A DNA stretch of 64,000 bases, from positions 46,356 to 110,355 of IMG/VR virus record IMGVR_UViG_2718218393_000006. One strand, written 5' to 3'. The notes below the pieces were generated by a model. The model saw nothing but the letters and a program-made list of their open reading frames with translations, was not told where the DNA came from and did not search any database. The position numbers and the translations under genes were made by a program. This document shows positions 9,296 to 52,942 of this stretch, in pieces. The first letter of the stretch is position 1. Every line of letters begins with the position of its first letter. The DNA comes from a virus (taxonomy: Duplodnaviria; Caudoviricetes).

Positions 9296-9657
9296 GTCGT
9301 CACCTCGAACACCGCGGACTGCATCGGCCATGCCTCAATCTGGATGTGATGCCGCCCGGGCAGCGAGAACGACAGCTCGCACTCGCCGTCGTCGCAGCCA
9401 TACGACGTGCCGTCCAGAACCAGCAAGCACGGCGCCGGCAGATCGCGCAGCACCATGCCGTCCAGCCGGGCCGGGTTCAGCGGCCGCACCTCGATCACCC
9501 CGTCGCTGCGGATATACTGCGTCAGCGGGTCAGCCTCGCCCTGCAACAGTAGTTTGCCGCTGGCGAACTCCACCTCGACGTTTTCGAGCGAGGCGACGCC
9601 CGTCTGCAGAATACGGCCGGTTTCCTCCTCATACTCAATGATGCTGATTTTCTCCAT
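9292..9657 (-). CDS. Tail-associated hypothetical protein
   Basis: In the tail operon; GGGG RBS. Confidence 0.6.
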   Translation of the reverse strand: MEKISIIEYEEETGRILQTGVASLENVEVEFASGKLLLQGEADPLTQYIRSDGVIEVRPLNPARLDGMVLRDLPAPCLLVLDGTSYGCDDGECELSFSLPGRHHIQIEAWPMQSAVFEVTT

Positions 9658-9662
9658 GTCCC

Positions 9663-12600
9663 CTATCTCCTGTACAACACCGCGCCGTAGCGGATCTGGC
9701 CATTTGCGCTGTAACCGCCGATGCTCTCAACTCCGACGGCAACAGTCTCGCCAGCCGATACATCCAGTACCAGGACCCCGCTACCATTGCTGATCCCCAC
9801 TGCGCGGCCACGGGCTCGCAGCGTGATGCTGGGAAACGGCGCATCGCCGAACACTAGCAGGGTGCCTCTGTCTGAGCAGTAGAATGGGAAATTGAAATTC
9901 CAACCTGCTGCCTGCCAGCCGCTCAGTGTCACGGTCCTCGTATCGTTTTTACTGACTGCCTCGCCTCGGATCTGAACGGTGTCGACCATCAGATTACGGA
10001 TGTATGTCGCGTCTACGCCGTTGGCGTCGACCACGACATTGCCGTTCTGCGTGATCCGCAGGCTCTCGGTATCGATCTGGCCGACGCTCAACTTCCCTTT
10101 GATGTACGCCGCACCGATCCCCGTCATGTCGACCACGACATTTCCGGCCGCGTCCCTGATCGTCAGTCCCCGGGTGTTGATCTGCGCGGCGTCGATTGAG
10201 CCGTCGACAATGACCCGGCGGCCGATGATTGAGCCGTCGGAGATCATGTCGCCGGCAATCGCCAGCGCCGGGCGCCCGTTGATGCTGGCGACGATGAACA
10301 CCTGGCGCGAGCCATTGCCGTCTGGCTGCGACACAACAAACCGGTCAGCCAGAAAATCCACCGCGCTGCCGTTTTGATCGGTCCTCAAACCTATGCCGGC
10401 AATTTTTCCGGAGGCGTTCAGCTTGATGATCTTCTCAGCCATCACGCCGTCCACCGTCCGGCCGACCTCCTGCAGGGAGGCCGTGTGGTTGCCGACCGTG
10501 GTCTGCATCGTCACAACCTGGTCTGTCAGCGCCGAGTCCGCCGCAACGCGGGCTTTGGACTCCTCGATGATGCCGGCGGCGTTGTCTTTTACTTTGGCGG
10601 CCAGCAGCGCCCTCTCGTTGGCCTCCTGCGAAATGGCATCACCCAACGTCGATAGTTGCCGCTTGGCGAAAGCGTAGTGGTTGCCCTGTGTGCCGCGGAT
10701 CTCGTCCGCTGTCAGCATCTGCTGCATCTGCGCCTGGATCAGCGAGTTCACGCTGCCCTGGACGCCAACAGCTTGCTCGATCGGCGTCCGTAGCGACTCT
10801 TGAAGCTGCGCAGACGTGAGGCTGTCCTTGAGCTGGTCAAGCAGCGCCCCGGGATCTTTGACCGTTTGCGCCTGGGCTTGAGCAAAAGCGCTGACATTCC
10901 CCCAGGTGTCGTACACGCGCAGCCAGAAGTAATAAGTCACCCCAAGCTGAAGGCCCTGCCAGCTGAACGTAGAGGTCGGAAAAGCCAAGTCGGCCAACTT
11001 GACCGGGCTGGCATCTCCAGAGGTTGTGCTGTAGAAAAGCTCAGCCCTCGCGATGTCTGGCCGCCCCGCGGGATACGTCCACGCCAGGTCGATCTTCATC
11101 GCCCCGCCCACCGCCGTCAGCGTCGGCGCCGGCGGCGGCGTCACCTGCCCTTGCGTCTGCTGGTTGCCGGCAACAGGGATGCTGACGACGCCGGTTACCG
11201 ATACCGTCGACACCCGGACATCGTAACTGCCGGGCACCACATCCGTGATTTCGGCGTGGTTGCTGACCTGATCCGGGAGCACTACCCAGTTTCCGCCATT
11301 CTGCCGATAGGTCACCCGATATCCACGTAGGTAAGGGTGCACAACCGCCGGCCAGTCCACCAACAGCTTCACCTTTCGGCTACCGTCTGGCGCCAGACTG
11401 GGCTGCTCCTGCAGCTGGACAGCCAGGACTGGCGGCATCGCGCCAGGGTCGGGCAGATTGCTGGTTGGCGCCGGGTCGAAGCGAAGACCAGTCTCGATGG
11501 CAGTCCATTTGTTCGCGTCGTACTGCAGGCCCGAGATTTCGAACTCTCCGTTGTCCACCGACTTGATGGAAACGCAGGTCCATAGGTCTGGCTGCAGGTT
11601 GGTCGCGATCAACACCCAGGTGGCGCCGGCGACTGGCTGGGCCGGATACTGCGAAACGATGGTCAGGGTATCGGTCGTGCCGGGCGATGCGACAACACCA
11701 CGGCGAACTGGCACGCCATCGGGGCCGGACACCTCAAGCGTGTAAGTCACGCCTGATTGAAGCGTTACCGGCGCATCCAATTTGACCACCGTGCCAACGA
11801 CCGACACCACCCGACCGCCCATCCGCGCGCCGGCCACATGGAAGTCGGACGTCGCGAACAGATCGCCCGGCTGCAAATCCGCGCAATAGGCCGCAGCCTT
11901 GAAAGCCACCATTTCGGTACTGCGCTGCGCAGTCTCCAAGATGTACCGGCCGCAGCGTCGCGCCTGGCCGCGCGTAACAGCCCCCATCGCCACCGCGGAG
12001 GTCTGCTGCAGCCCATAGGTCAGCAGCCCTTGGCCGTGTTCAGCGTACTCCACCGCGCGCCGGTAGCGGTCGCTAGGATCCGTCCAGGCCACCGCCGCCG
12101 CGGTGAAGCGCCCATTCTTCGGCGTGGACGAATAGGTGAATTTGCCGTCGATAACATTGGTGGCGTTGAAGTGCTTGACCGGCTGCTTGCCAGGCATATC
12201 TGCGACGATCCGAATGCCTCCGGCCGACCAGTATGCCTGGCCGCAGAAGCTGCTCACGATGTCGGACACGACCTTCCAAGCATCCTGCGTGTCCTGCTGA
12301 AAATTGTGGAACTGGAACCGCGGCTCGAACCCGCCGTACCCATCGGGGACAGACTGGTCGCACCACTGGGCTATCGCATACATCCCCCACCGGTCCATGT
12401 TGGCGGCGGGAATGTTGATGCCGAAGCGATTGTCCGTGCAGTAGGTCCAAAGATACCAGACGGGATTGCTGGTCACCGCCGGCTTGAAGTTGCCATCCCA
12501 CGGTCCGGTGTACGTGCGCGCGACCGGGTCGTAATTGCTGGGTACTTGGCACTTCAGCTGCTGCCACAGCACCGACACTGTGGGCATCCGGCTGAACTGC

Positions 12601-40246: not shown

Positions 40247-40759
40247 TCACTCCCCTCCCTTGATCTCGTGCGCCCGGCCGCCAGCGCCCGGCACCTTGTA
40301 CGCGCTCAACTTGCATTGCCCGTTCTCGCCCGGCTTGTAGACCACCAGCACGGCCGGGAACGGCGCCTTCGCCTTTGCCCCATCGAACCGCAGCCGCTTG
40401 TCCAGCGCGCGGATCTCCGCGGCCTTCAGCGCGTGGCGATGGAACCAACGGGTATCCGTCCGCGCCGGCACCAGGCAGACCACCAGCGCGCCATCGATGC
40501 TGGAGCAGTAGGCCTTGGCCATCCACAGCTTGATCTGGTGGCCGAACGGCGGGTTCATCCAGACGACGTCCCTGCCCCAGTCCTGGGCCAATCCATCCTG
40601 CTCGCGCGTGAAAAATCTCTCGCACTTGGCGTTCTCCGGCGTCGCGCAGACGTCCAGCGTGAACCCGAACTCCGCGTGCAGCTGGTCGAACAGCTCCTGC
40701 GGTGTCGGCCACTCGTCCGTTTTGCTGCTGAAATGCACCTGCTCGCTCAGATCCGCCAT
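40247..40759 (-). CDS. Phage DNA N6-adenine methyltransferase
   Basis: DEWPTP, FTLDVCA, WMNPPF, LVPARTDTRWF. Confidence 0.9.
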   Translation of the reverse strand: MADLSEQVHFSSKTDEWPTPQELFDQLHAEFGFTLDVCATPENAKCERFFTREQDGLAQDWGRDVVWMNPPFGHQIKLWMAKAYCSSIDGALVVCLVPARTDTRWFHRHALKAAEIRALDKRLRFDGAKAKAPFPAVLVVYKPGENGQCKLSAYKVPGAGGRAHEIKGGE

Positions 40760-41040
40760 CAGGCGGCCTCCGCGAGCGCATAGTCGTTGGCGGCTTCGCG
40801 AGGCAGGAACGGGGCGAGGCGCTCATCGCCAGTGAGTTCGTACAGCCTGGCGCGTTCCGCAACAGAAAAACGCGCCGGGCAGTGCGAAACCTTATCCCGG
40901 TTTATCTTTCTCCTCAGCGAATTGGGGTTTATGCCCAGCTCGTCCGCCAAGTGCTTCAACTTCAGCCCCGTCCGATCCTTCCAGTCGGCAACGACCTGGT
41001 AGATCACCACATCGATCTCAGAAAACATGGTTCGCAACAT
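40759..41040 (-). CDS. CII-like HTH regulator
   Basis: LADELGINPNSLRRKIN; first gene of the leftward early operon. Confidence 0.6.
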   Translation of the reverse strand: MLRTMFSEIDVVIYQVVADWKDRTGLKLKHLADELGINPNSLRRKINRDKVSHCPARFSVAERARLYELTGDERLAPFLPREAANDYALAEAA

Positions 41041-41283
41041 TTCCTTGAAAAGTGATCATTTTCAAAGGTTTAGTGCTTTGCCATACTTCACTCAGCACCA
41101 AGCCAGACCCGCTACAGCGCCTCGACCGGCTACCACCTTGGAGCGCGATGCGGGAGTTCTTTGACAACTGGATAAAACGCAAAGGAAATCCATAAATGCA
41201 TGCACAAAGAAGTGGCGCCAGGCTGTCATACACACCGCAATCGTTGCAGCTATCGCAGGGAGCGAGTAAAGACGCACACGCAG

Positions 41284-41350
41284 AAAGAATAACAATTTGT
41301 TATTCTTTTAGCAATAACATTTTGGGAGTTCCAGGCAATAACAATTTGCT
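41284..41350. promoter_or_regulatory. Operator cluster (OR-like)
   Basis: 25-bp palindrome AAAGAATAACAA-T-TTGTTATTCTTT (41284-41308) plus two further CAATAACA half-sites. Confidence 0.75.
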
Positions 41351-41363
41351 GTCAAATCGCAGC

Positions 41364-41729
41364 ATGGAAAGTAAAGAATTTCGTCGTGCCAACTTGCTTG
41401 CCTTGATCGAGCAATATGGAACAATCAGGCACCTAGCCGAAAAGGTTGATGTGGCCCCAAACCATCTGAGCCTTGTGAAAAACCATGTAAGAAACATGGG
41501 GGATAAGCTTGCGCGTCGCATCGAGGAGGCTGTAGGAAAGCCAGTGGGCTGGATGGACTTGCCTCACGATGGTGGCGACTTGGACCTAGCCCAAGATGTG
41601 GCATCAGTTACGATCACAGCTCAGTCTGAAGAGGAGCTCGTGAAGCTCCTGCGCGAAAAGGGCGAAGCCTACGCGTTCGAACTGCTCCGCAAGGCATTCA
41701 TGGAGCAGGAAAACAAAAAGGGCGACTGA
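41364..41729 (+). CDS. CI-like HTH repressor without an S24 peptidase domain
   Basis: RRANL..LI..YG....LAEK....PNHLS..K...RNMGDKLARRIE...GKP.GWMD; 121 aa. Confidence 0.75.
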   Translation: MESKEFRRANLLALIEQYGTIRHLAEKVDVAPNHLSLVKNHVRNMGDKLARRIEEAVGKPVGWMDLPHDGGDLDLAQDVASVTITAQSEEELVKLLREKGEAYAFELLRKAFMEQENKKGD

Positions 41730-41748
41730 TGTCGCCCCACTCTACCCT

Positions 41749-41946
41749 CTAGGCCGCAAACCTGGCCTGGGTCAAATCTAGACTACTCACATCCCCGCTC
41801 CGCACAAACTCCAAGGAGCCATCTTGGTAGCGCCTGAGCGCCACTTCGGCGACAACCGGGCCGCGCGCGTCGAAACCAGCTCTGTGGTGATGACAGTTTG
41901 CCGCATGCACACATGGCGCATGAGCGGTATTGCAATTGCTCTGCAT
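41749..41946 (-). CDS. Small Cys/His-rich ORF (candidate LuxR-controlled antirepressor)
   Basis: GGAG RBS; 65 aa; lies downstream of the lux-box-like palindrome. Confidence 0.5.
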   Translation of the reverse strand: MQSNCNTAHAPCVHAANCHHHRAGFDARGPVVAEVALRRYQDGSLEFVRSGDVSSLDLTQARFAA

Positions 41947-42031
41947 TCCTAACTCCGTTTCAGGTGCTCAATCGTAGCCGTCTGTCATATGTCACTACTG
42001 ACATCTTCTTGTTTTATTGCCACATTGTCCC

Positions 42032-42049
42032 ACCTGACATCTGTCAGGT
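42032..42049. promoter_or_regulatory. lux-box-like 18-bp palindrome
   Basis: ACCTGACA-TC-TGTCAGGT; same ACCTG...CAGGT ends as the V. fischeri lux box. Confidence 0.6.
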
Positions 42050-42125
42050 CATTACTAGAAATAGTAAGAAAATCTGTACACAGTAAAAATACGTATTTAT
42101 AAATACATGGTTTAAATGCCATGTA

Positions 42126-42878
42126 TTATTCGCATGCCCCGATCTTGTACATCAGCTGCTCTACAGTTGACGCCTCGTAAGTCTCCATCAGGCGTCCGAT
42201 GTGGTAATCGATTGTGTAGACACTCTTGCCTAAAGCTGATGCCACCTCTGCTCTTTTAAACCCTCGCTTACAATACAGATCGATTACGGTTTGCTGGATT
42301 TTGCTCGTTTTAGCAATTCGTGCGTTTGAGGCAAAAACTCTATGCGCGACCTCGGCCAGATCGGGAAGCAGCATTTCGAGCAAATCACGCAGCGCGCGGT
42401 CGTCTTCCACCTGGCGCCCAATCATCGACAGCACGTATCGAACACCGCCGCCCTTATCGGCAATGTAGGTCAGGCCATGCGTTAGCTTGTGGTGCTCGCA
42501 ATCAGAGACGAACCTCCGCTGCGCCTGGGTCAGGCCCTGGGCGTAGAGCCGCGTCGACCACACAACCGGCTCACCTGCGGACGCCCTCACAATGGGGTCA
42601 ACCTTCACGTAACCACGCTCTACGTACCGCAGCAACCAATCCTCAGACCAGCCGTGATTTATGTACAGCGATGGCACCTTGGTCCCGTAGAACGTCGCCA
42701 ACAGCGTCGGCGCACCGCCGGCTACCGTGCACACCAGAGCCAGGGCCGCGTCAAGATCATCGCGCGTCCGAGCACGCACCAGCATGCTGCGCAGCGCTGC
42801 AGCAGCGCAGATTGCTGCATTGATTCTGTTATTGGATATCGCCGCGACTTCCGGCAGCTGATCGATAGCTGTCGTCAT
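42126..42878 (-). CDS. LuxR-family autoinducer-binding transcriptional regulator (solo, phage-encoded)
   Basis: W..RY...Y..VDPIV, VVW and HG match the AHL-pocket residues; C-terminal HTH (AEVASALGKSVYTIDYHI). Confidence 0.85.
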   Translation of the reverse strand: MTTAIDQLPEVAAISNNRINAAICAAAALRSMLVRARTRDDLDAALALVCTVAGGAPTLLATFYGTKVPSLYINHGWSEDWLLRYVERGYVKVDPIVRASAGEPVVWSTRLYAQGLTQAQRRFVSDCEHHKLTHGLTYIADKGGGVRYVLSMIGRQVEDDRALRDLLEMLLPDLAEVAHRVFASNARIAKTSKIQQTVIDLYCKRGFKRAEVASALGKSVYTIDYHIGRLMETYEASTVEQLMYKIGACE

Positions 42879-42942
42879 GAGTCCTCCCCGTCTATTCAAG
42901 GTAGGACATTTCAACGACGCAGAAAACCGCGCCGCCGATTTC

Positions 42943-43278
42943 TCAGCGTGCGGTGGTCAGTAGCCGCTGCACCAGGCGCCAGACTTCGTCCGGCCCTTTG
43001 CTCAGCATTTGCTCAGCTACATCTTCCAGCGAGTCCGCAGAGACGTAAGGGGCCTCCGTGCTCGCCAAGGGCGTCTTACGCCCCTTGCCTGTCTCCAGCC
43101 ATGTCAGCGAGACCCCCAGCGCCTTCGCAATGCCCGGCAGCTTGGCAGACTCGCGATTGCGACCATTCTCCAGGTCAGCAACTATCGACCGACTGCAACC
43201 GGCCCGCCGGCCAAGATCTTCCTGGCGCCAGCCGCGGCGCATGCGCTCGGCCCTGATTCGATCACCTCTTACATTCAT
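42943..43278 (-). CDS. XRE-family HTH regulator
   Basis: GDRIRAER...WRQEDLG...SRSIVADLENG...IAKALGVSLTWLETGKG. Confidence 0.85.
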   Translation of the reverse strand: MNVRGDRIRAERMRRGWRQEDLGRRAGCSRSIVADLENGRNRESAKLPGIAKALGVSLTWLETGKGRKTPLASTEAPYVSADSLEDVAEQMLSKGPDEVWRLVQRLLTTAR

Positions 43279-43535
43279 GCCGCATTGTCGATTACGGCAG
43301 AGATGCCATGGCACCATTCAGAGATGGCATTACATCACAATCGGGCGCAAAAAAGCCCGCGTGAGCGGGCTTGTTGCGGGCGCCAGGTGTTTTTATCTGA
43401 ACGGGTGGGCTCAGCCTGGGCTTGAGGTGAGTCTGCCGGTGGTGGCCGGCGCGGTCAAGACAAAGGAAAACCCGCCGGAGCGGGTTAGGGAAATTGGCAA
43501 GTATATTTTGCCGCTTCAAGCGGAAGGATTGTAAA

Positions 43536-44573
43536 TTACAACACACTAACTAAATAGGCCAACTCTCTCTGGTAGCGGGTAACAGACGAATTTACTTGAA
43601 GCCTCTTCCCTTCCACAGTATGAAAACCACCTATTTGAAGCTTTGAAATAGGGATGCTTTTTGCACCACTAATTCGACCTGAAGAAACGAAATCATCAGT
43701 TAGAACAAATGCATCCGCAGGATCTGACACATCAAAAGCATGATAAAATTTTTCTGCAATTGAAAGCGCACGCTCGACATACATTTTTGATGCTCTATCA
43801 GGCGTGGAACGTATTCGACTTTTCGAACCTACCATTGTCATGACAATTGCAGCTACTTTAGGCACTGACAATCCCCCAGCACGTTCATTCCATACCGCAA
43901 AATCTCGCTTATTATTATGAAGCATATCCAACGTAAGCTCCAGCGACTCAATAGAGTGCTCGTCTACTCGCACAGGTATAACCAATGCGTCTGCAGCACA
44001 CCATGCAAGATGGGTTCCGCCCGCATAAAATGGGCTTGTATCGATGAGAACGCCTTCAGCTTTTTTTTCTTTTGCCTCTTCCGCTAGAACATTTTTCAAG
44101 CTCTCCAGCAAAGACTTCACAGCTTTGGGATTGCTTTGCGAGTGCGCCAGCTGCAGCTGCTGATAAAGTGTCGAAGGAAATGCAAACATTTCAGCATCTC
44201 CAGGAACAACATAGCTCGGCTTTGTTGTTTTAAAAGCACCACAATATTGAGAAACTCTATATGAAAGATCAGATGGCTTTTCACCAAATGCAGGACCAAG
44301 CAGTACAGGCTGCAAGCCCTTTAGAATAGTCACCTCTGGAGTTTCATCACGCATTAGAGTTTCACTCAGATTGCACTGAGGGCAAACATCTGCGACAAGC
44401 ATTGGCCTTCTGATACTCATTTCAAATGCCAAATTGAAGCTAAGCGTGGACTTGCCGACACCACCTCGTAGTGTAGTGACGGCATAGTTTTTGTATTTTA
44501 AATCTCCCGCTCTGACGAAGCCTTCTTCCACGACTTTTCGATGCGTTTCAAAGATTTTATCCAGGCCACCCAT
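43536..44573 (-). CDS. Orphan ParA/Soj-family ATPase (AT-rich)
   Basis: LRGGVGKST (Arg at the signature Lys), ADVCPQCNLS, LIDTSP, ADALVIPV; start MGGLDK. Confidence 0.85.
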   Translation of the reverse strand: MGGLDKIFETHRKVVEEGFVRAGDLKYKNYAVTTLRGGVGKSTLSFNLAFEMSIRRPMLVADVCPQCNLSETLMRDETPEVTILKGLQPVLLGPAFGEKPSDLSYRVSQYCGAFKTTKPSYVVPGDAEMFAFPSTLYQQLQLAHSQSNPKAVKSLLESLKNVLAEEAKEKKAEGVLIDTSPFYAGGTHLAWCAADALVIPVRVDEHSIESLELTLDMLHNNKRDFAVWNERAGGLSVPKVAAIVMTMVGSKSRIRSTPDRASKMYVERALSIAEKFYHAFDVSDPADAFVLTDDFVSSGRISGAKSIPISKLQIGGFHTVEGKRLQVNSSVTRYQRELAYLVSVL

Positions 44574-44624
44574 TTTAGCTTCCCCAAATGTTGAGTTTGT
44601 ACGGCAGACGAGTTGAGCATAGCA

Positions 44625-44779
44625 TGCAGGTGGTGCAGGTGCAACGAAGAAGTGCAGGTGGTGCAGGTGAAACGAAGAAGTGCAGGTGGTGCAGGTGCAA
44701 CGAATAAGTGCAGGTGATGCAGGTGAAACGAAGAAGTGCAGGTGGCGCAGGTGCAACGAAGAAGTGCAGGTGGTGCAGG
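44625..44779. repeat. 5.5 tandem 28-bp repeats upstream of the ParA-like gene
   Basis: Unit TGCAGGTGGTGCAGGTG(C/A)AACGAAGAAG at 44625, 44653, 44681, 44709, 44737; partial at 44765. Confidence 0.95.
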
Positions 44780-44877
44780 AGTTGACGGTAAAAATAAAGA
44801 GAGCACTCAACTGCGCCAAGCCTCGGCCGGTTCATCACCATTCAAGTGGCGGGGCAGAGATTGGGCTCCGACACCTG

Positions 44878-45072
44878 CTATATGGACACATACCGCCAAG
44901 TCTTGAGCCCCATCTTGAGTGCGGCAAACTTGGCGGATTCCTTGTTGCCCCATAGCGGGGTAGCGCTCAGATCCAGGGCTTCGGCCAGTGTGTGGCCGGC
45001 CTCGGGCTTGTCGCGCTGGTACACGTACCACTTCACCTTATCGCCAGTCGTTGCCAGTACGTAGGTCGCCAT
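44878..45072 (-). CDS. Small hypothetical protein
   Basis: AAGGG RBS; 64 aa. Confidence 0.5.
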   Translation of the reverse strand: MATYVLATTGDKVKWYVYQRDKPEAGHTLAEALDLSATPLWGNKESAKFAALKMGLKTWRYVSI

Positions 45073-45134
45073 GTTGAGCCCTTTAACTGTCGGCATCTCC
45101 GCAGCACGCACTCGTCCACCGTTTGCGGCTGTCT

Positions 45135-45548
45135 TTATTTCTTCTCAAGCCAATAATGCATCCGACTGTCCGGGTCCTCCATCAAGGATTTGCACATGTC
45201 GGAATACTGGAAGAGCAGTCCATCAAAACCTTCGTTTGCTAAGGCTTTTGACTCGATCTGGGTGTGTAGCAGGAGCTTTGATCGAGCGTATTCCGGCGGC
45301 TGCCCCTCCATCAGCACTTCAAGCATCTGCATCGCATGGAGAGCAGATGTCTTACTTGCCTTTGCAGCTGCCTTCCATTTGCTGTCCGTCCGCCCTGATT
45401 CTTCTGAGACCGTTGAAACAATTGTGTAGTAAGCGGCGCATGCAGCCATGTCGTCCGCGAGATTTGCAATGGCCGTTGGTGTGTCATATGCCTTTGCAGG
45501 GCTGGTAGCCAACAGGCCAATGCTGGCCGCCAATACACACACCTTCAT
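45135..45548 (-). CDS. Exported hypothetical protein
   Basis: Signal peptide ending AKA; CAAYY motif. Confidence 0.6.
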   Translation of the reverse strand: MKVCVLAASIGLLATSPAKAYDTPTAIANLADDMAACAAYYTIVSTVSEESGRTDSKWKAAAKASKTSALHAMQMLEVLMEGQPPEYARSKLLLHTQIESKALANEGFDGLLFQYSDMCKSLMEDPDSRMHYWLEKK

Positions 45549-45624
45549 CTCTGTCCCATCAGATGCGGCAGACGCCTCTGTCGCAACTCCGTGAACACAG
45601 ACTTTTCGTCGAAGCCGCCGGACA

Positions 45625-46020
45625 TCAGCATCCCAGCCATGGCGCAATATCCGACTTGTTCTGCACCGCATCCGCCCAGGTACTCATCGGAGTAGCTTTG
45701 CCGTTCTTAATCGTCCAGCGCATCAAAAACTCTCTGTAGTAGCGAGCATCATCCGGTGTTGGTGGCGGCGCCGCGGCGATGATGTGCAGCAGCTGATTTT
45801 TAGGGTCGCCTCCAGTGTTCGTCAGCTCCGAAAATCTCTTGTCGATCTTGAAGCGGCAGGCCTTAAAGGCGTCCCACGCCGTGCCGTGCGCCGCGCTAGG
45901 GATCGCCTTCAGCGCAGCCTCAATCCGTGTCATCGAATCGGCGTAAGTTGCGGTCGGCACCAGAGCCAGGATGCAAGCGAATACCCATACCTTCACAACC
46001 CTCTCCTTTACCCGCATCAA
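45625..46020 (-). CDS. Exported hypothetical protein
   Basis: Signal peptide ending TYA. Confidence 0.5.
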   Translation of the reverse strand: MMRVKERVVKVWVFACILALVPTATYADSMTRIEAALKAIPSAAHGTAWDAFKACRFKIDKRFSELTNTGGDPKNQLLHIIAAAPPPTPDDARYYREFLMRWTIKNGKATPMSTWADAVQNKSDIAPWLGC

Positions 46021-46053
46021 AGGGCGGCTCGGTCACTTACCCCTGCCAGAGCC

Positions 46054-46461
46054 TCAGTCTGTAGCCGTCTGTACAACTGACATAGAGGCTGACTGGTCGA
46101 TCAGCACTCGGAAGCGAGCCTCCTGCTCGGCCCCCGCCACGCCGGCCACCTCCTTCAGATTGCCACCACAAAACGCTCCGTTCGGTTCAGCGCCAATCAC
46201 TACCGATCCCGGGTTGCTCCTCAATCTGACAACCTCGCCAGCCCCTAGGAGGGCGCGCAACTTTCCATTCACGTAGATGCGGGTATCACAGGCTGAGCCG
46301 ACCATTCCAGCGTCACGCTTCACCAGTATCTGCGCACTCCCTTCACCAATATCCATGACTTTGCTCGGCTCTACCGGCCTTGCTTTTGCAAAAGAAACTG
46401 GCTGCGTCGCGCAGGCGCTCAGGACAAGTGAAAAAGCAATGCACATTGAAATTTTCCACAT
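46054..46461 (-). CDS. Lipoprotein (superinfection-exclusion candidate)
   Basis: Lipobox LSAC; VKRDAG.VGSAC...YVNG; located in the immunity region. Confidence 0.65.
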   Translation of the reverse strand: MWKISMCIAFSLVLSACATQPVSFAKARPVEPSKVMDIGEGSAQILVKRDAGMVGSACDTRIYVNGKLRALLGAGEVVRLRSNPGSVVIGAEPNGAFCGGNLKEVAGVAGAEQEARFRVLIDQSASMSVVQTATD

Positions 46462-46543
46462 GTGAAGCAAACCCAATGGTTGACATTGGCATCTTACACT
46501 TGGCTACAAGCCAAGCCAATCTGCATTACTTTATCGGGATCGA

Positions 46544-47149
46544 TCATGCCAAAAGTAGTTTGATGAAACTCAGCACCGCCAATGGACCCCGGTGCCTAAT
46601 TTCCTCTGCCAGCTTCTCGTCAGACAACTTGGGCAGCATGCCTACCGTGGCATGATTATTGTCCAGCCACGCGTTCGGAAGGCCAGCAGCCACTTCGATC
46701 TTCCTGGCGATCTCATCACCGCAGCGCCGCTCCCCTGACTTGACGGTGCTTAAGTAAGAGGGCGATGTCCCTACCTCGCTGGCAAGCTTTGCCGCCATGC
46801 CACGAATTGCCAAAATGGACATAAGGTTATCTCGGCGAATTCCATATACGTCCTTCAGCTCGCCAAGGGGTTCTACGGGAACGTCTGCATCCCCGCCTCC
46901 AGGGAAGTCCATCCAGCCTCTCGGCTTACCAACAGCGGCCTCAATCTTTCTGGCCAGCAATTCCCCCACCCTCTTCTTGTCGTTCTTCACCTGACTTAAG
47001 TAATTCGGCTTGATCCCAAGCTTGCTCGCCAGCTCGGCCGTTGCCCCTCGGCGTGCCACAAGTGAAAACAGCTTCTCCTTGCGCACTTCGAAAACGTCGG
47101 CAAATCCGTGCCCCTCTTCACGCTGCGTCTCTTCGTCATCATCGCTCAT
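46544..47149 (-). CDS. Repressor-like protein with two tandem HTH domains, paralogous to 41364-41729
   Basis: Two copies of R..L..L...RG..A.LAS..G..P.YLS.VK...R.G...ARKIE.A.G.P..W.D. Confidence 0.75.
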   Translation of the reverse strand: MSDDDEETQREEGHGFADVFEVRKEKLFSLVARRGATAELASKLGIKPNYLSQVKNDKKRVGELLARKIEAAVGKPRGWMDFPGGGDADVPVEPLGELKDVYGIRRDNLMSILAIRGMAAKLASEVGTSPSYLSTVKSGERRCGDEIARKIEVAAGLPNAWLDNNHATVGMLPKLSDEKLAEEIRHRGPLAVLSFIKLLLA

Positions 47150-47210
47150 TCCAACCTCCCGTCTCCAATGCCAGCATCTTACAGCCATGGGTTGGGCGGC
47201 GTGGCGGGCA

Positions 47211-47295
47211 ATTACACAATGTAATTGCATTAAAGCAACACAACCAATTGGAAATATCATTTTGTTATTGATTGATGAATATCTGTTTGTTATTG
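47211..47295. promoter_or_regulatory. Operator cluster (OL-like) / early rightward promoter region
   Basis: ATTACA-CAA-TGTAAT palindrome and two TTTGTTATTG boxes (47261, 47286) matching the 41284 operator half-site. Confidence 0.6.
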
Positions 47296-47996
47296 TTACC
47301 CCATCAGCACAGCAACACAGTGCACCGATCTCTAACAACCAGCAGCGATACGGCACAGCCCAGGGCGCGCAGCAAGGCACCCCCTGTCAGGTCTCAGACC
47401 TGAGGAAGCGATGGCCAAGTCATGCAGAAGCACCTGCATGTCGCGCAAGAGGTTCGCAAGGAGCGGACCAATGACAGCGCAAGCGCCCACCCCACCGTGG
47501 CGAGTAACGGGGGAGTGAAGTAGAAGGCCGCTTTGAGAGAGGCGGCACACTGGATGGGATCGCGCACTGGACATGCGCAAGCGGCGGCAACCGCGAGGCC
47601 CAAGCTGGAAAGTAGGTGTCTGCCAGCCTCATCCAGTGTGAGCGGTAAACAGGCGAGAGCGGCCTGAGTAAAACGGCTTATGCGACTGGCCCGGTCGTTA
47701 AACGGGCACCCACACGCCTGGGTCCTTTGGCTGGACAGCGCCAAGAGCGGGCCTCCTCAGTTCCCAGCCGTGTAGGTCAACGCCAGGAGAAGCATGGATA
47801 TATTTTTGCTCTGGCTTTGGATTCTGATTGGTTGGCGCCCGCGAGAGCGACTTTCCTCGCGCGGCAAGGAAGTCAGATCCACTACGGCAGTAGCATCGCC
47901 ACCACCTCAGATGGCCTGCGCGAAGGGCGCGCAGTAGCCATCGCCAACCTGAGAGACGGGCCGCTTCGGCGGCCGAGACAACTGAAAGGACATCGC

Positions 47997-48176
47997 ATGA
48001 GCGAACAGGGTTTCACGAAGGGCCAGGCGGTCAGCTTCACCACCATCCACGGCCGCGAAGGTAAAGGCAAGATCATCGACATCACCAAGGGCGCCAAGGG
48101 CGACTTCATCAAAGTGCAGGAAGACGGCAGCGACAAGGTGACATCCTGCCGCCCGAAGCAGCTGAAGGCCGCCTAA
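47997..48176 (+). CDS. Small SH3/KOW-like protein
   Basis: AAAGGA RBS; strong codon bias; 59 aa. Confidence 0.6.
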   Translation: MSEQGFTKGQAVSFTTIHGREGKGKIIDITKGAKGDFIKVQEDGSDKVTSCRPKQLKAA

Positions 48177-48593
48177 GCCGCCGCCGGCGACAGCCGGCTG
48201 CATTGCTGAACGCCTTGTGCGAGCAAGTGTAGCGCTGGCCGCGCTTACCGGGCGCCACCCGGGCAGGAGCCACAAGACGTTCAGCAATGCAGTGTAGACC
48301 CCCGTACTGTGCCGGGGCCGCTTCGGCGGGACACCTTCCGGTTGCGCACCCCAACCGACTGCGCAGATGGGTGGGTCACAGAACACCGTAGACCCTTGCA
48401 GCAGCGCCGGCAGCCTTCACAGGTAGTCTGATGCCGGTAGGACCGCTGATTTCAGCGGTGGGGCCGAGGGCCACGCCCTCCCCGGCTGGATGATGGATCA
48501 TGCCAGTCGCCCCACCCCTGCGATTCGCAGGTTTCTCCTCAGTTTTCCTTAATTTACCCGGCCCTCGCGCCGGGTTTCTTTTTGGAGTTCGCC

Positions 48594-52594: not shown

Positions 52595-52942
52595 ATGCAA
52601 AACCCCCGTGACATCCGCCGCAGCACCGGCCTCAACCAGCAGCAGTTCTGGGGCGTCCTCGGCGTCACCCAATCCGGCGGCAGCCGGTACGAAAACGAGC
52701 GCAACATCCCCAAGCCGGTCCAGACCCTAATGAACGTGGTCCACGTCCACGGCATCGACCTGTCCAAGATCACAGCCGAGAACGCCCAGGTCATCCGCGC
52801 GCTGCTGGCCGGTGAACTGGATGTTTCCGCCCTGCTCAAGACCGCCGAGCACATGCGCAAGCTCTCGGCGGCCGCGGCCGGCATTGCAGCCGAGGCCGCG
52901 AACACTTCTTTGCTGGTTCATGGGCTGAAGGAGGCCGCATGA
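52595..52942 (+). CDS. RsaL-like XRE HTH protein
   Basis: NQQQFW...GVTQSGGSRYEN...P.PV resembles the RsaL HTH signature. Confidence 0.7.
   Translation: MQNPRDIRRSTGLNQQQFWGVLGVTQSGGSRYENERNIPKPVQTLMNVVHVHGIDLSKITAENAQVIRALLAGELDVSALLKTAEHMRKLSAAAAGIAAEAANTSLLVHGLKEAA

Follow-up and report, generated by a model that had tools for sequence, protein, structure and literature searches.

A candidate quorum-sensing input module with a CviR-like LuxR solo and a small Cys/His gene in a Chromobacterium prophage

Gene organization and prophage setting

The source phage is an integrated lambdoid prophage of Chromobacterium, a betaproteobacterium, located on a 5.04-Mb contig, and the stretch of its DNA analyzed here (64 kb) is called the window. 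On the minus strand the window carries a module composed of an xre gene (43278-42943), a LuxR solo gene (42878-42126), a palindrome (42032-42049) and a 65-aa Cys/His ORF (41946-41749), hereafter smORF. All elements of the module described in an earlier note on this DNA were found, each where that note had placed it.

The first gene of the pair, xre (42943..43278, minus strand), encodes a 111-aa HTH protein with an HTH_3 match of 1.4e-10 and matches to PHROG repressor families, which bears out the claim that an XRE gene precedes luxR. Its start at 43278 is fixed by homologues, which begin there, so that a longer start (ATG at 43317) was rejected; its pN/pS was 0.09. The xre and luxR genes lie on one strand with a gap of 64 nt and no predicted terminator between them. 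This pair is retained in the related loci L003-L007 and L016, while luxR, promoter and smORF are present without xre in L008 and L009.

An intrinsic terminator lies upstream of xre (43345..43372, minus strand), with a perfect hairpin of 8-bp arms at 43353-43372 followed by a T-run, and the hairpin also precedes xre in L003, L007, L016, L017 and L018. It is a predicted insulator of the module from the adjacent ParA-like cassette. The ParA-like gene next door belongs to a separate cassette, which relatives lack. The Rfam scan of 40500-48500 matched no family. No match was obtained when the locus (blastn) and LuxR (tblastn) were compared with 50,697 phage records, and two scans with LuxR patterns, of genome contigs from which the source genome or very close ones may be missing, confirmed no relative.

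The phage LuxR protein

The luxR gene (42126..42878, minus strand) encodes a LuxR solo of the acyl-HSL-receptor type, which is CviR-like in sequence and in its fold model. The length of 250 aa was counted from the ATG common to the homologues (42878); a longer start, TTG at 42914, was rejected because the homologues begin at 42878. The autoinducer-binding domain (PF03472, Autoind_bind) scored 57.1 bits against a cut-off of 23, and the pN/pS of luxR was 0.11. By sequence the closest solved relative was CviR (4e-14). The structural model (pLDDT 80) aligned over its full length to CviR, TraR, LasR and QscR, with CviR as the best fold relative in both domains; the model has four C-terminal helices and gave 230-243 aligned columns with full-length CviR, TraR, QscR and SdiA.

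Throughout the family, residues W82, Y86, D95, P96, W108, G136 and S152 do not vary, and in alignment they fall on the CviR pocket; the earlier note had likewise read an AHL pocket in this protein. In the alignment, the first six correspond to W84, Y88, D97, P98, W111 and G138 of CviR, and we take W57, Y61, D70, P71, W85 and G113 to be their equivalents in TraR. The DNA-binding domain is atypical, with a 2-residue deletion and loss of a Glu conserved in canonical LuxR proteins, and its GerE match of 15.2 bits was under the cut-off of 23.5. We take the protein as a diverged CviR-like receptor, which may bind an acyl-HSL.

The earlier note found no luxI in the window. This agrees with our search of the entire 110-kb provirus record, in which PF00765 (LuxI) had no match; control genomes also gave none, so the result is an absence of match only. 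The same provirus record holds a second LuxR solo, beside tail-fibre genes, and protein P0003 is a LuxR 61% identical to that of the window.

The small ORF and the CI-like repressor

The smORF (41749..41946, minus strand) encodes a 65-aa protein with an N-terminal PC[IV]HxxNCHH motif and is a candidate antirepressor. It is retained as an ORF of 65-69 aa in 10 loci, all related ones included, its pN/pS of 0.09 is about that of xre and luxR, and it neighbours luxR in eight of eight LuxR loci. A Shine-Dalgarno sequence, GGAG, is found at 41953-41956. A profile search of 1.84 billion proteins returned 11 matches, seven of them proteins of 63-69 aa, and searches of Pfam, PHROGs, NCBIfam, PDB sequences, the ESM Atlas and BFVD folds gave no match. 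The model of the protein was of low confidence (pLDDT 70) and had no fold relatives. Judged from the pattern of substitutions, the smORF is a real gene under purifying selection, from a tiny unnamed family. Its transcript would end at an intrinsic terminator (41719..41738, minus strand) that has an 8-bp stem with 6 GC pairs and a T-run, overlaps the stop codon of the CI-like gene and is conserved among relatives.

As the earlier note stated, the smORF converges on a CI-like HTH gene without an S24 domain. This gene (41364..41729, plus strand) encodes a 121-aa repressor without a peptidase domain that matches the PHROG repressor families 5736/12107, and Pfam S24 had no match in it. The immunity operators, TTGTTATT-type dyads (41284..41324, no strand assigned), lie in the gap that separates the CI-like gene from the early lytic operon and are unlike the two dyads of the smORF promoter described below; a half-site of this type recurs at 47263-47300.

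Comparison with sister prophages revealed a mosaic boundary inside the CI-like gene. The conserved block extends from ~43440 to ~41620, so that the C-terminal tail of the repressor (from ~41620) belongs to the module: relative to L003-L007 the head of the protein is ~35-40% identical and the tail ~100%. The DNA-binding head and its operators have been exchanged between relatives, and the tail travels with the smORF. Subtypes of the smORF track subtypes of the CI tail whatever sensor is present, and the variable C-terminal half of the smORF protein changes along with the tail type. Because the two are physical neighbours, this co-inheritance could be plain linkage. Some sister prophages keep xre and the smORF and have a different HTH gene in place of luxR. 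The C-terminal helix motif of XRE resembles that of the CI-like protein.

The smORF promoter zone

The first 27 nt beyond the stop codon of luxR show a neutral rate of variation. The regulatory zone between luxR and the smORF is strongly conserved, with 12 of 152 sites variable, compared with 53% of four-fold sites. Among six relatives none of the 29 sites of the core promoter varied, and neither did any of the 18 sites of the palindrome, whereas in the flanking genes 53% of four-fold sites did (30% in the slowest gene).

From this conservation we propose a smORF promoter on the minus strand. It comprises an extended -10-like element, TGGGACAAT (42024..42032), with a predicted transcription start near 42017, a -35-like hexamer, ATGACC (42047..42052), 17 bp upstream of the -10-like hexamer, and an upstream element (42074..42098) that is partly retained in all three LuxR clades and variable at 3 of 25 sites. 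The motif TGGGA[A/C]AAT is unchanged across the three clades despite diverged flanks, and GTGACA or GTGACC takes the -35-like position in the other clades. A consensus scan for sigma-70 promoters called none here, and a sigma-54 reading of the -10 zone was rejected since the GG/GC spacing does not fit. This promoter architecture was found only where the middle gene is luxR; in L017 and L018, with another HTH gene in that slot, the promoter zone is different. The terminator scan found none between luxR and the smORF, so transcripts from the xre promoter could simply continue into the smORF. Both the first dyad (D1, below) and the hairpin past the luxR stop were rejected as a luxR terminator, given that a T-run is absent and that scan was negative.

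Downstream, the leader varies at 6 of 77 sites and contains three further TGACA/TGTCA pentamers (41983..42004, minus strand), which together with the palindrome make the densest such cluster of the window: five pentamers lie within 80 bp, where ~5e-5 such windows are expected per whole 64 kb. Conserved RNA structure in the 71-nt leader was rejected, with zero consensus pairs and a z of -1.1.

Two dyads occupy the promoter. The first, D1 (42052..42067, minus strand), is TTACTA-N4-TAGTAA, is unique in the window and is centred at -42.5 of the proposed promoter, which makes it a candidate activator site. A dyad in this register (-42 to -43) occurs in the window, in L008/L009 and in L016, with a sequence that varies by clade, and D1 of L007 shows a compensatory double change.

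The second, D2 (42032..42049, no strand assigned), is the palindrome ACCTGACATCTGTCAGGT, which spans -32 to -15. It lies past the luxR stop, and the smORF ATG at 41946 is 85 nt beyond it, in line with the distance reported earlier. D2 has perfect 8+8 arms, a 2-bp spacer, ACCTG...CAGGT ends and the spacing CTG-N8-CAG rather than CTG-N10-CAG. It has no second copy in the window or the 110-kb record, and among 2.9 million viral contigs it was found in the five sister prophages only. By itself a perfect palindrome of this size is nothing unusual: the window contains 23 of them, against 8.2 +/- 3 in Markov simulations. D2 is identical in seven of seven close relatives and is lost in the LuxR clades at 43-45% identity, which differ in their recognition helices as well; in L008/L009/L016 only the GTCA of the right arm is left.

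The earlier note took this palindrome for an activating lux box. The present analysis does not favour that role, as D2 is centred at -23.5, in the spacer, which is a repressor-type position, and is missing from the two more distant LuxR-smORF clades. Under the inferred promoter built on TGGGA[A/C]AAT, the one model conserved across three clades, class II centring (-42.5) fits D1 and not D2. D1 appears the better candidate for an activating LuxR site, and D2 more likely acts as a brake to which XRE or LuxR itself would bind. Three other readings of these sites were rejected: a host CviR site, because the spacing differs; an operator of the CI-like repressor, because the immunity region has TTGTTATT-type CI operators at either end; and a LexA box in the smORF promoter, because the sole CTGT-N8-ACAG of the window is at 52760, at chance level.

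Proposed mode of action and alternatives

We give about even weight to the view that the locus serves as a quorum-sensing input module, organized in the manner of the TF-smORF induction modules found in plasmid-like phages, and that it acts through the following steps. The xre and luxR genes would be co-transcribed from a short promoter behind the insulating terminator, and LuxR would bind an acyl-homoserine lactone that comes from the host or from a neighbouring cell. Alone or with XRE, LuxR would then control the dedicated smORF promoter (~42017-42098). The smORF protein would bind the short, helical C-terminal tail of the peptidase-less CI-like repressor and may bind the similar tail of XRE too. 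The repressor would be inactivated without cleavage, opening the early lytic operon by an SOS-independent route of induction. On such a scheme the prophage probably uses cell-density signals to decide on induction.

This reading draws on the observed gene content, folds, selection, conservation, synteny and mosaic boundary. In particular, we counted for it the receptor family and pocket, the selected smORF, the conserved promoter zone and the co-inheritance of smORF and CI tail, together with the lack of S24 in the CI-like protein, the chance level of the only LexA-box-like site in the window (52760), CI operators that differ in type from D1 and D2, and the precedent of Apop and ARM81ld (PMC10432266). 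Counted against it were a consensus scan that called no sigma-70 promoter, the spacer position of D2, the linkage of smORF and CI tail, the atypical DNA-binding domain of LuxR with its GerE score below cut-off, the possible read-through into the smORF, parts that are not homologous to those of ARM81ld, the Phaeobacter xre-luxR(-luxI) operons that favour lysogeny, and the low-confidence smORF model without fold relatives. Of the interpretation in the earlier note, a phage quorum-sensing receptor wired to a smORF beside a non-cleavable repressor is backed by the comparative evidence, and the palindrome as activating lux box is not.

Since D2 has a repressor-type position, the sign of the response could be the opposite. 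The same wiring would then run with reversed sign or logic: D2 would be an operator in the promoter spacer, where LuxR (with HSL or, like EsaR, without it) or XRE shuts the smORF promoter, and quorum signals would stabilise lysogeny or only gate induction, as in Phaeobacter. Such an operator agrees with the location of D2 at -32 to -15 of the conserved promoter model, with its lux-box-like ends and invariance within the clade, with the operator array that the three additional leader pentamers suggest, and with the lysogeny-promoting xre-luxR operons known in integrated prophages (bioRxiv 10.64898/2026.07.02.736140). However, the L008/L009 and L016 clades lack D2 yet keep LuxR, promoter and smORF, luxI was not matched here whereas the Phaeobacter modules carry it, and a solo receptor with a smORF beside a repressor better fits the pro-lysis modules of Aeromonas. 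We regard the reversed sign as unlikely, though the strongest of the alternatives.

It is somewhat less likely still that the smORF protein is another small metal-binding factor, such as a regulator of transcription or translation, an exclusion factor or a co-repressor reinforcing CI, merely encoded beside the repressor gene. Its conserved Cys/His motif suggests a zinc knuckle, it is unlike Qtip, the ARM81ld smORF or any known antirepressor, and linkage can explain its co-inheritance with the CI tail. Nevertheless, its position and size, its dedicated regulated promoter and a repressor partner without peptidase fit the TF-smORF pattern, and its variable C-terminal half switches with the tail type.

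Least probable of the three is that LuxR is a lysogenic-conversion or eavesdropping regulator unwired to the smORF (by HSL titration, pairing with host CviR or control of host genes), the smORF promoter being under XRE and/or phage repressors only: the palindrome and D1 each occur just once in the prophage, so that no LuxR regulon is readable from sequence, XRE persists in sister loci where LuxR has been replaced, and another LuxR solo is present in the record, but the promoter zone is replaced entirely when the slot holds another HTH gene, L008 and L009 retain luxR, promoter and smORF without xre, and luxR and smORF are never separated among the LuxR loci.

Beyond the input module proposed above, we tentatively suggest, as a possibility we hold with some doubt, that Chromobacterium lambdoid prophages share a portable cassette of xre, an exchangeable sensor (CviR-like LuxR or small HTH protein), the Cys/His protein and a repressor tail. 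The smORF protein would dock on a helical tail common to CI and XRE, heteroimmune phages with unrelated operators could be induced via one module, and the promoter, having one dyad at -42.5 (D1) and another in the spacer (D2), might integrate an activating quorum signal with a repressing input.

Implications

To our knowledge, phage eavesdropping by a LuxR with a small antirepressor has been demonstrated only in a handful of Aeromonas linear plasmid-like phages. VP882-type vibriophages perform the same eavesdropping with another receptor. The present locus points to a separate origin of the same logic, out of non-homologous parts and in ordinary lambdoid prophages integrated in a betaproteobacterium. 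Two more points would carry weight if borne out: a small protein that targets the tail would induce a repressor lacking any self-cleaving domain, and sister prophages could exchange what fills the sensor slot, a matter relevant to how co-resident prophages escape being triggered together. Whether the phage LuxR activates or represses is a question that the two-dyad promoter makes directly testable, and the CviI/CviR system of Chromobacterium serves as a standard model in the laboratory, where colour gives an easy read-out.

Comparison with known systems

Compared with CviR of Chromobacterium (PDB 3QP5, 3QP6, 3QP1), the phage LuxR keeps the equivalents of pocket residues W84, Y88, D97, W111 and S155. 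Identity is merely ~23-26%, however, CviR Y80 is replaced by Trp, and the DNA-binding domain is two residues shorter and under the GerE threshold. The CviR site is a 16-bp CTG-N10-CAG dyad (PMC12114271), in contrast to the CTG-N8-CAG of D2.

The hth / xre-luxR-luxI switches of Phaeobacter inhibens resemble the present locus in being xre-luxR operons in the lysis-lysogeny control region of integrated prophages. They carry luxI, however, and where the window has a smORF they have an hth gene in counter-orientation; these prophage xre-luxR(-luxI) operons act in favour of lysogeny and not of lysis (bioRxiv 10.64898/2026.07.02.736140).

VqmA(Phage)-Qtip of vibriophage VP882 was previously offered as the precedent. 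It shares with the proposed module a phage copy of a host receptor that controls a small cI-inactivating protein, on our side by inference. The receptors differ (VqmA/DPO versus LuxR/HSL), and VP882 is a linear plasmid phage whose qtip is counter-oriented and has no XRE partner (PMC10432266).

The closest precedent is the XRE-LuxR-smORF module of the Aeromonas linear plasmid-like phages Apop and ARM81ld (PMC6456758, Silpe & Bassler 2019; PMC10432266, Silpe et al. 2023), in which a smORF switched on by XRE, LuxR and C4-HSL inactivates cI and leaves it uncleaved (PMC10432266). The proteins are dissimilar: against ARM81ld, XRE gave an E of 0.1, the smORF gave no alignment and LuxR was 20% identical, so the modules are analogous, not orthologous. 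The arrangement differs as well, since in the window the smORF follows luxR in the same orientation and is convergent with the repressor gene, whereas the Aeromonas smORF is counter-oriented upstream of xre. The window phage is integrated and lambdoid, in contrast to the linear plasmid-like Aeromonas phages (par, telN); its repressor lacks an S24 domain and its promoter has two dyads. What the modules have in common is an xre-luxR pair with a LuxR solo lacking a synthase, an adjacent unannotated smORF of 50-70 aa with its own promoter (here proposed from conservation), a location beside phage regulatory genes and, by analogy, an expected cleavage-free, SOS-independent action on the repressor.

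Prophage setting and layout of the module

A lambdoid siphovirus gene set is encoded in the window, which covers the right-hand 64 kb of an IMG/VR provirus record of 110 kb. It includes structural genes for tail fibre J, tape measure, portal and terminase as well as replication and early genes for an O-like replication protein, NinB, a methylase and a CII-like regulator. Exact copies of the LuxR and XRE proteins were found on a 5.04-Mb contig, and cluster mates almost identical to them carry the names of Chromobacterium piscinae, C. vaccinii and C. violaceum. Therefore, the element is an integrated Chromobacterium prophage.

All the features described in the earlier note were found in the window. 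On the minus strand, xre (43278-42943, 111 aa, HTH_3) is followed after a 64-nt gap by luxR (42878-42126, 250 aa). Past the luxR stop lie a neutral-rate stretch, a strongly conserved zone containing the perfect palindrome D2 (42032-42049), and a 65-aa Cys/His ORF (smORF, 41946-41749, minus strand) directly preceded by a Shine-Dalgarno sequence. The smORF unit ends in a clear intrinsic terminator (41738-41719). The convergent CI-like gene (41364-41729, plus strand, 121 aa) has a stop codon that overlaps the loop of this terminator. The CI-like protein matched phage repressor families, and no peptidase domain was found in it by domain search. No LuxI-family match was detected in the whole 110-kb record.

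Upstream of xre, a unit of about 90 nt (about 43346-43440, minus strand) lies between intrinsic terminators at 43486-43469 and 43372-43345. It has a promoter-like start (TTGACC-N17-CAGACT), is kept in the related loci L007, L016 and L018, gave no Rfam match, and is a candidate small RNA.

A second LuxR solo, unrelated to the first, is encoded outside the window (L002:1258-1980, minus strand; about 9644-10366 of the whole record, G000:C1). This 240-aa protein has an Autoind_bind match and a GerE score close to threshold, and its gene lies beside two tandem XRE genes and genes for tail fibres. There are probably two prophages in the record, with one LuxR apiece.

LuxR receptor

The Autoind_bind score of LuxR was far over threshold, and its best solved relatives by sequence were CviR entries (4e-14). 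Both domains of the AlphaFold model (pLDDT 80) aligned with known receptors, CviR first, followed by TraR, LasR, QscR, RhlR and SdiA. The residues lining the acyl-HSL pocket of CviR are retained and invariant across the phage family, with the sole exception of CviR Y80, which is replaced by Trp. The DNA-binding domain is atypical: its GerE score (15 bits) is under threshold, the usual Glu at its start is missing, and it is two residues shorter than that of CviR. Only a handful of relatives were found, every one from Chromobacterium or IMG/VR proviruses, and no description of a Chromobacterium prophage LuxR was found in the literature searched.

The small ORF

By its pattern of conservation, smORF is a genuine gene. 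An open frame of 65-69 aa is retained in every related locus, and pN/pS among six close relatives was 0.09 for smORF, compared to 0.09 for xre and 0.11 for luxR. Searching 1.84 billion representative proteins with a profile gave 11 matches, seven of them proteins of 63-69 aa sharing the N-terminal motif PC[IV]HxxNCHH. No named protein alike by sequence or fold was found in the databases searched. The predicted structure is a beta-hairpin plus a short helix, with the Cys/His head unmodelled. The exact smORF and CI-like proteins were missing from a 15-billion-protein collection that does contain this genome's LuxR and XRE, so the annotation of the source genome probably omits the two genes or calls them differently.

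Proposed promoter and candidate operators of smORF

The promoter zone was aligned with two distant LuxR-smORF clades, L008/L009 and L016, whose LuxR proteins share 43-45% identity with that of the window. TGGGA[A/C]AAT was invariant across clades despite diverged flanks and may be read as an extended -10 (TGn plus GA[C/A]AAT). A -35-like element, (A/G)TGAC(C/A), lies 17-18 bp upstream. A simple consensus scan of this zone called no promoter. The conserved model predicts a transcription start near 42017 and would place D2 at -32 to -15, where a bound protein blocks RNA polymerase.

Site variation was compared in six relatives, taking as neutral reference the four-fold degenerate sites of three genes, of which 53% were variable (30% in the slowest gene). 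The first 27 nt past the luxR stop varied at about the neutral rate (15/27), and between 42098 and the start of smORF variation was confined to 12 of 152 sites. No variation was seen at promoter positions -35 to -7 (0/29) or in D2 (0/18). The palindrome occurs once in the window and once in the record; elsewhere in 2.9 million viral contigs it was found in five sister prophages only.

The earlier note took D2 for an activating lux box. The palindrome proved real and strongly constrained, but under the conserved model it occupies the promoter spacer, and it is lost in the distant clades, where the right-arm GTCA alone remains. A spacer operator is the likelier role. In every LuxR clade, however, a dyad is centred at -42 to -43 in the proposed numbering, the classical position for lux-type activator sites. 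The window's version, D1 (42052-42067, TTACTA-N4-TAGTAA), shows a compensatory double change in L007, and L008/L009 and L016 have another, GC-richer dyad in the same register. D1 type tracks LuxR recognition-helix type, a pattern that common descent would also yield. From these comparisons, D1 is the better candidate activator site.

The smORF leader (41947-42017, 71 nt) is nearly invariant (6/77 sites variable). No conserved RNA fold was found in it; such constraint without a fold suggests protein-binding sites, possibly repeats. D2 and three more leader TGACA pentamers form the window's densest cluster of such pentamers.

A perfect palindrome, TCAGGTCTCAGACCTGA, was also observed at 47384-47403, within the leader that belongs to the other early promoter region. 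One 8-nt arm of D2 is contained in it exactly, and its ACCTGA hexamers are those of D2 arranged the opposite way; chance alone would be expected to give one such 8-mer match.

Linkage of the module to the repressor tail

The CI-like repressor has operators of a different type from D1 and D2, namely TTGTTATT dyads (41284-41324). Half-sites of the TTGTTATT type recur near 47263-47300, which places them at either end of the 6-kb immunity region, adjoining the one-domain and the two-domain HTH repressor genes.

Sliding identity between the window and the close relatives L003, L005 and L007 showed conservation over a block that begins at about 43440 and ends at about 41620. One edge is the terminator separating the module from a ParA-like gene (43536-44819), which is absent from the sister prophages. 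The fall of identity to background at about 43440 indicates that this gene is a separate inserted cassette rather than a partition locus belonging to the LuxR module. The other edge lies inside the CI-like gene. The last ~40 residues of CI are identical in relatives, whereas identity falls to only 35-40% in the HTH head and the operator regions are not related. Immunity specificity has thus been swapped while the repressor tail stayed linked to smORF, luxR and xre. In a comparison of five locus types, the C-terminal half of the smORF protein, which is variable, tracks the CI-tail type, whatever the sensor gene. A C-terminal helical motif of XRE also resembles the CI tail, weakly by BLAST (E 0.09) and clearly in family alignments.

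In L017 and L018, the LuxR slot is occupied by a 107-126-aa HTH protein, with xre, smORF and the convergent CI retained and a smORF promoter zone that differs from LuxR loci. L008 and L009 are without xre. L009 and L017 are from one genome (IMG genome 2654587666, proviruses 000003 and 000006), which is thus a polylysogen with two module versions. These paralogous modules use LuxR in one and the small HTH protein in the other as sensor and differ in smORF and CI-tail types, offering a natural polylysogen for testing separate triggers.

Comparison with known systems

The interpretation in the earlier note was supported in part, and quorum-sensing input remains the most likely reading. We give about an even chance to such input reaching prophage induction by way of a small protein that targets the non-cleavable repressor at its tail. 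LuxR would pass the signal to smORF, whose product would act on the CI-like tail and lead to induction; the ligand, dyad partners, sign and target are all putative.

The sign could possibly be reversed, the quorum signal favouring lysogeny. In integrated Phaeobacter prophages, xre-luxR-luxI operons promote lysogeny (2026 preprint, bioRxiv 10.64898/2026.07.02.736140).

For induction through smORF, the closest known parallel is found in Aeromonas phages Apop and ARM81ld. In their XRE-LuxR-smORF module, XRE and LuxR together with C4-HSL switch on a counter-oriented smORF, and the protein made from it inactivates cI without cleaving it (PMC10432266). Pairwise comparison with the ARM81ld sequence found no similarity for XRE or smORF, and the LuxR proteins are 20% identical. 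Therefore, the Chromobacterium module is analogous to that of ARM81ld and not orthologous, and it differs from both Aeromonas phages in orientation, phage lifestyle and repressor type.
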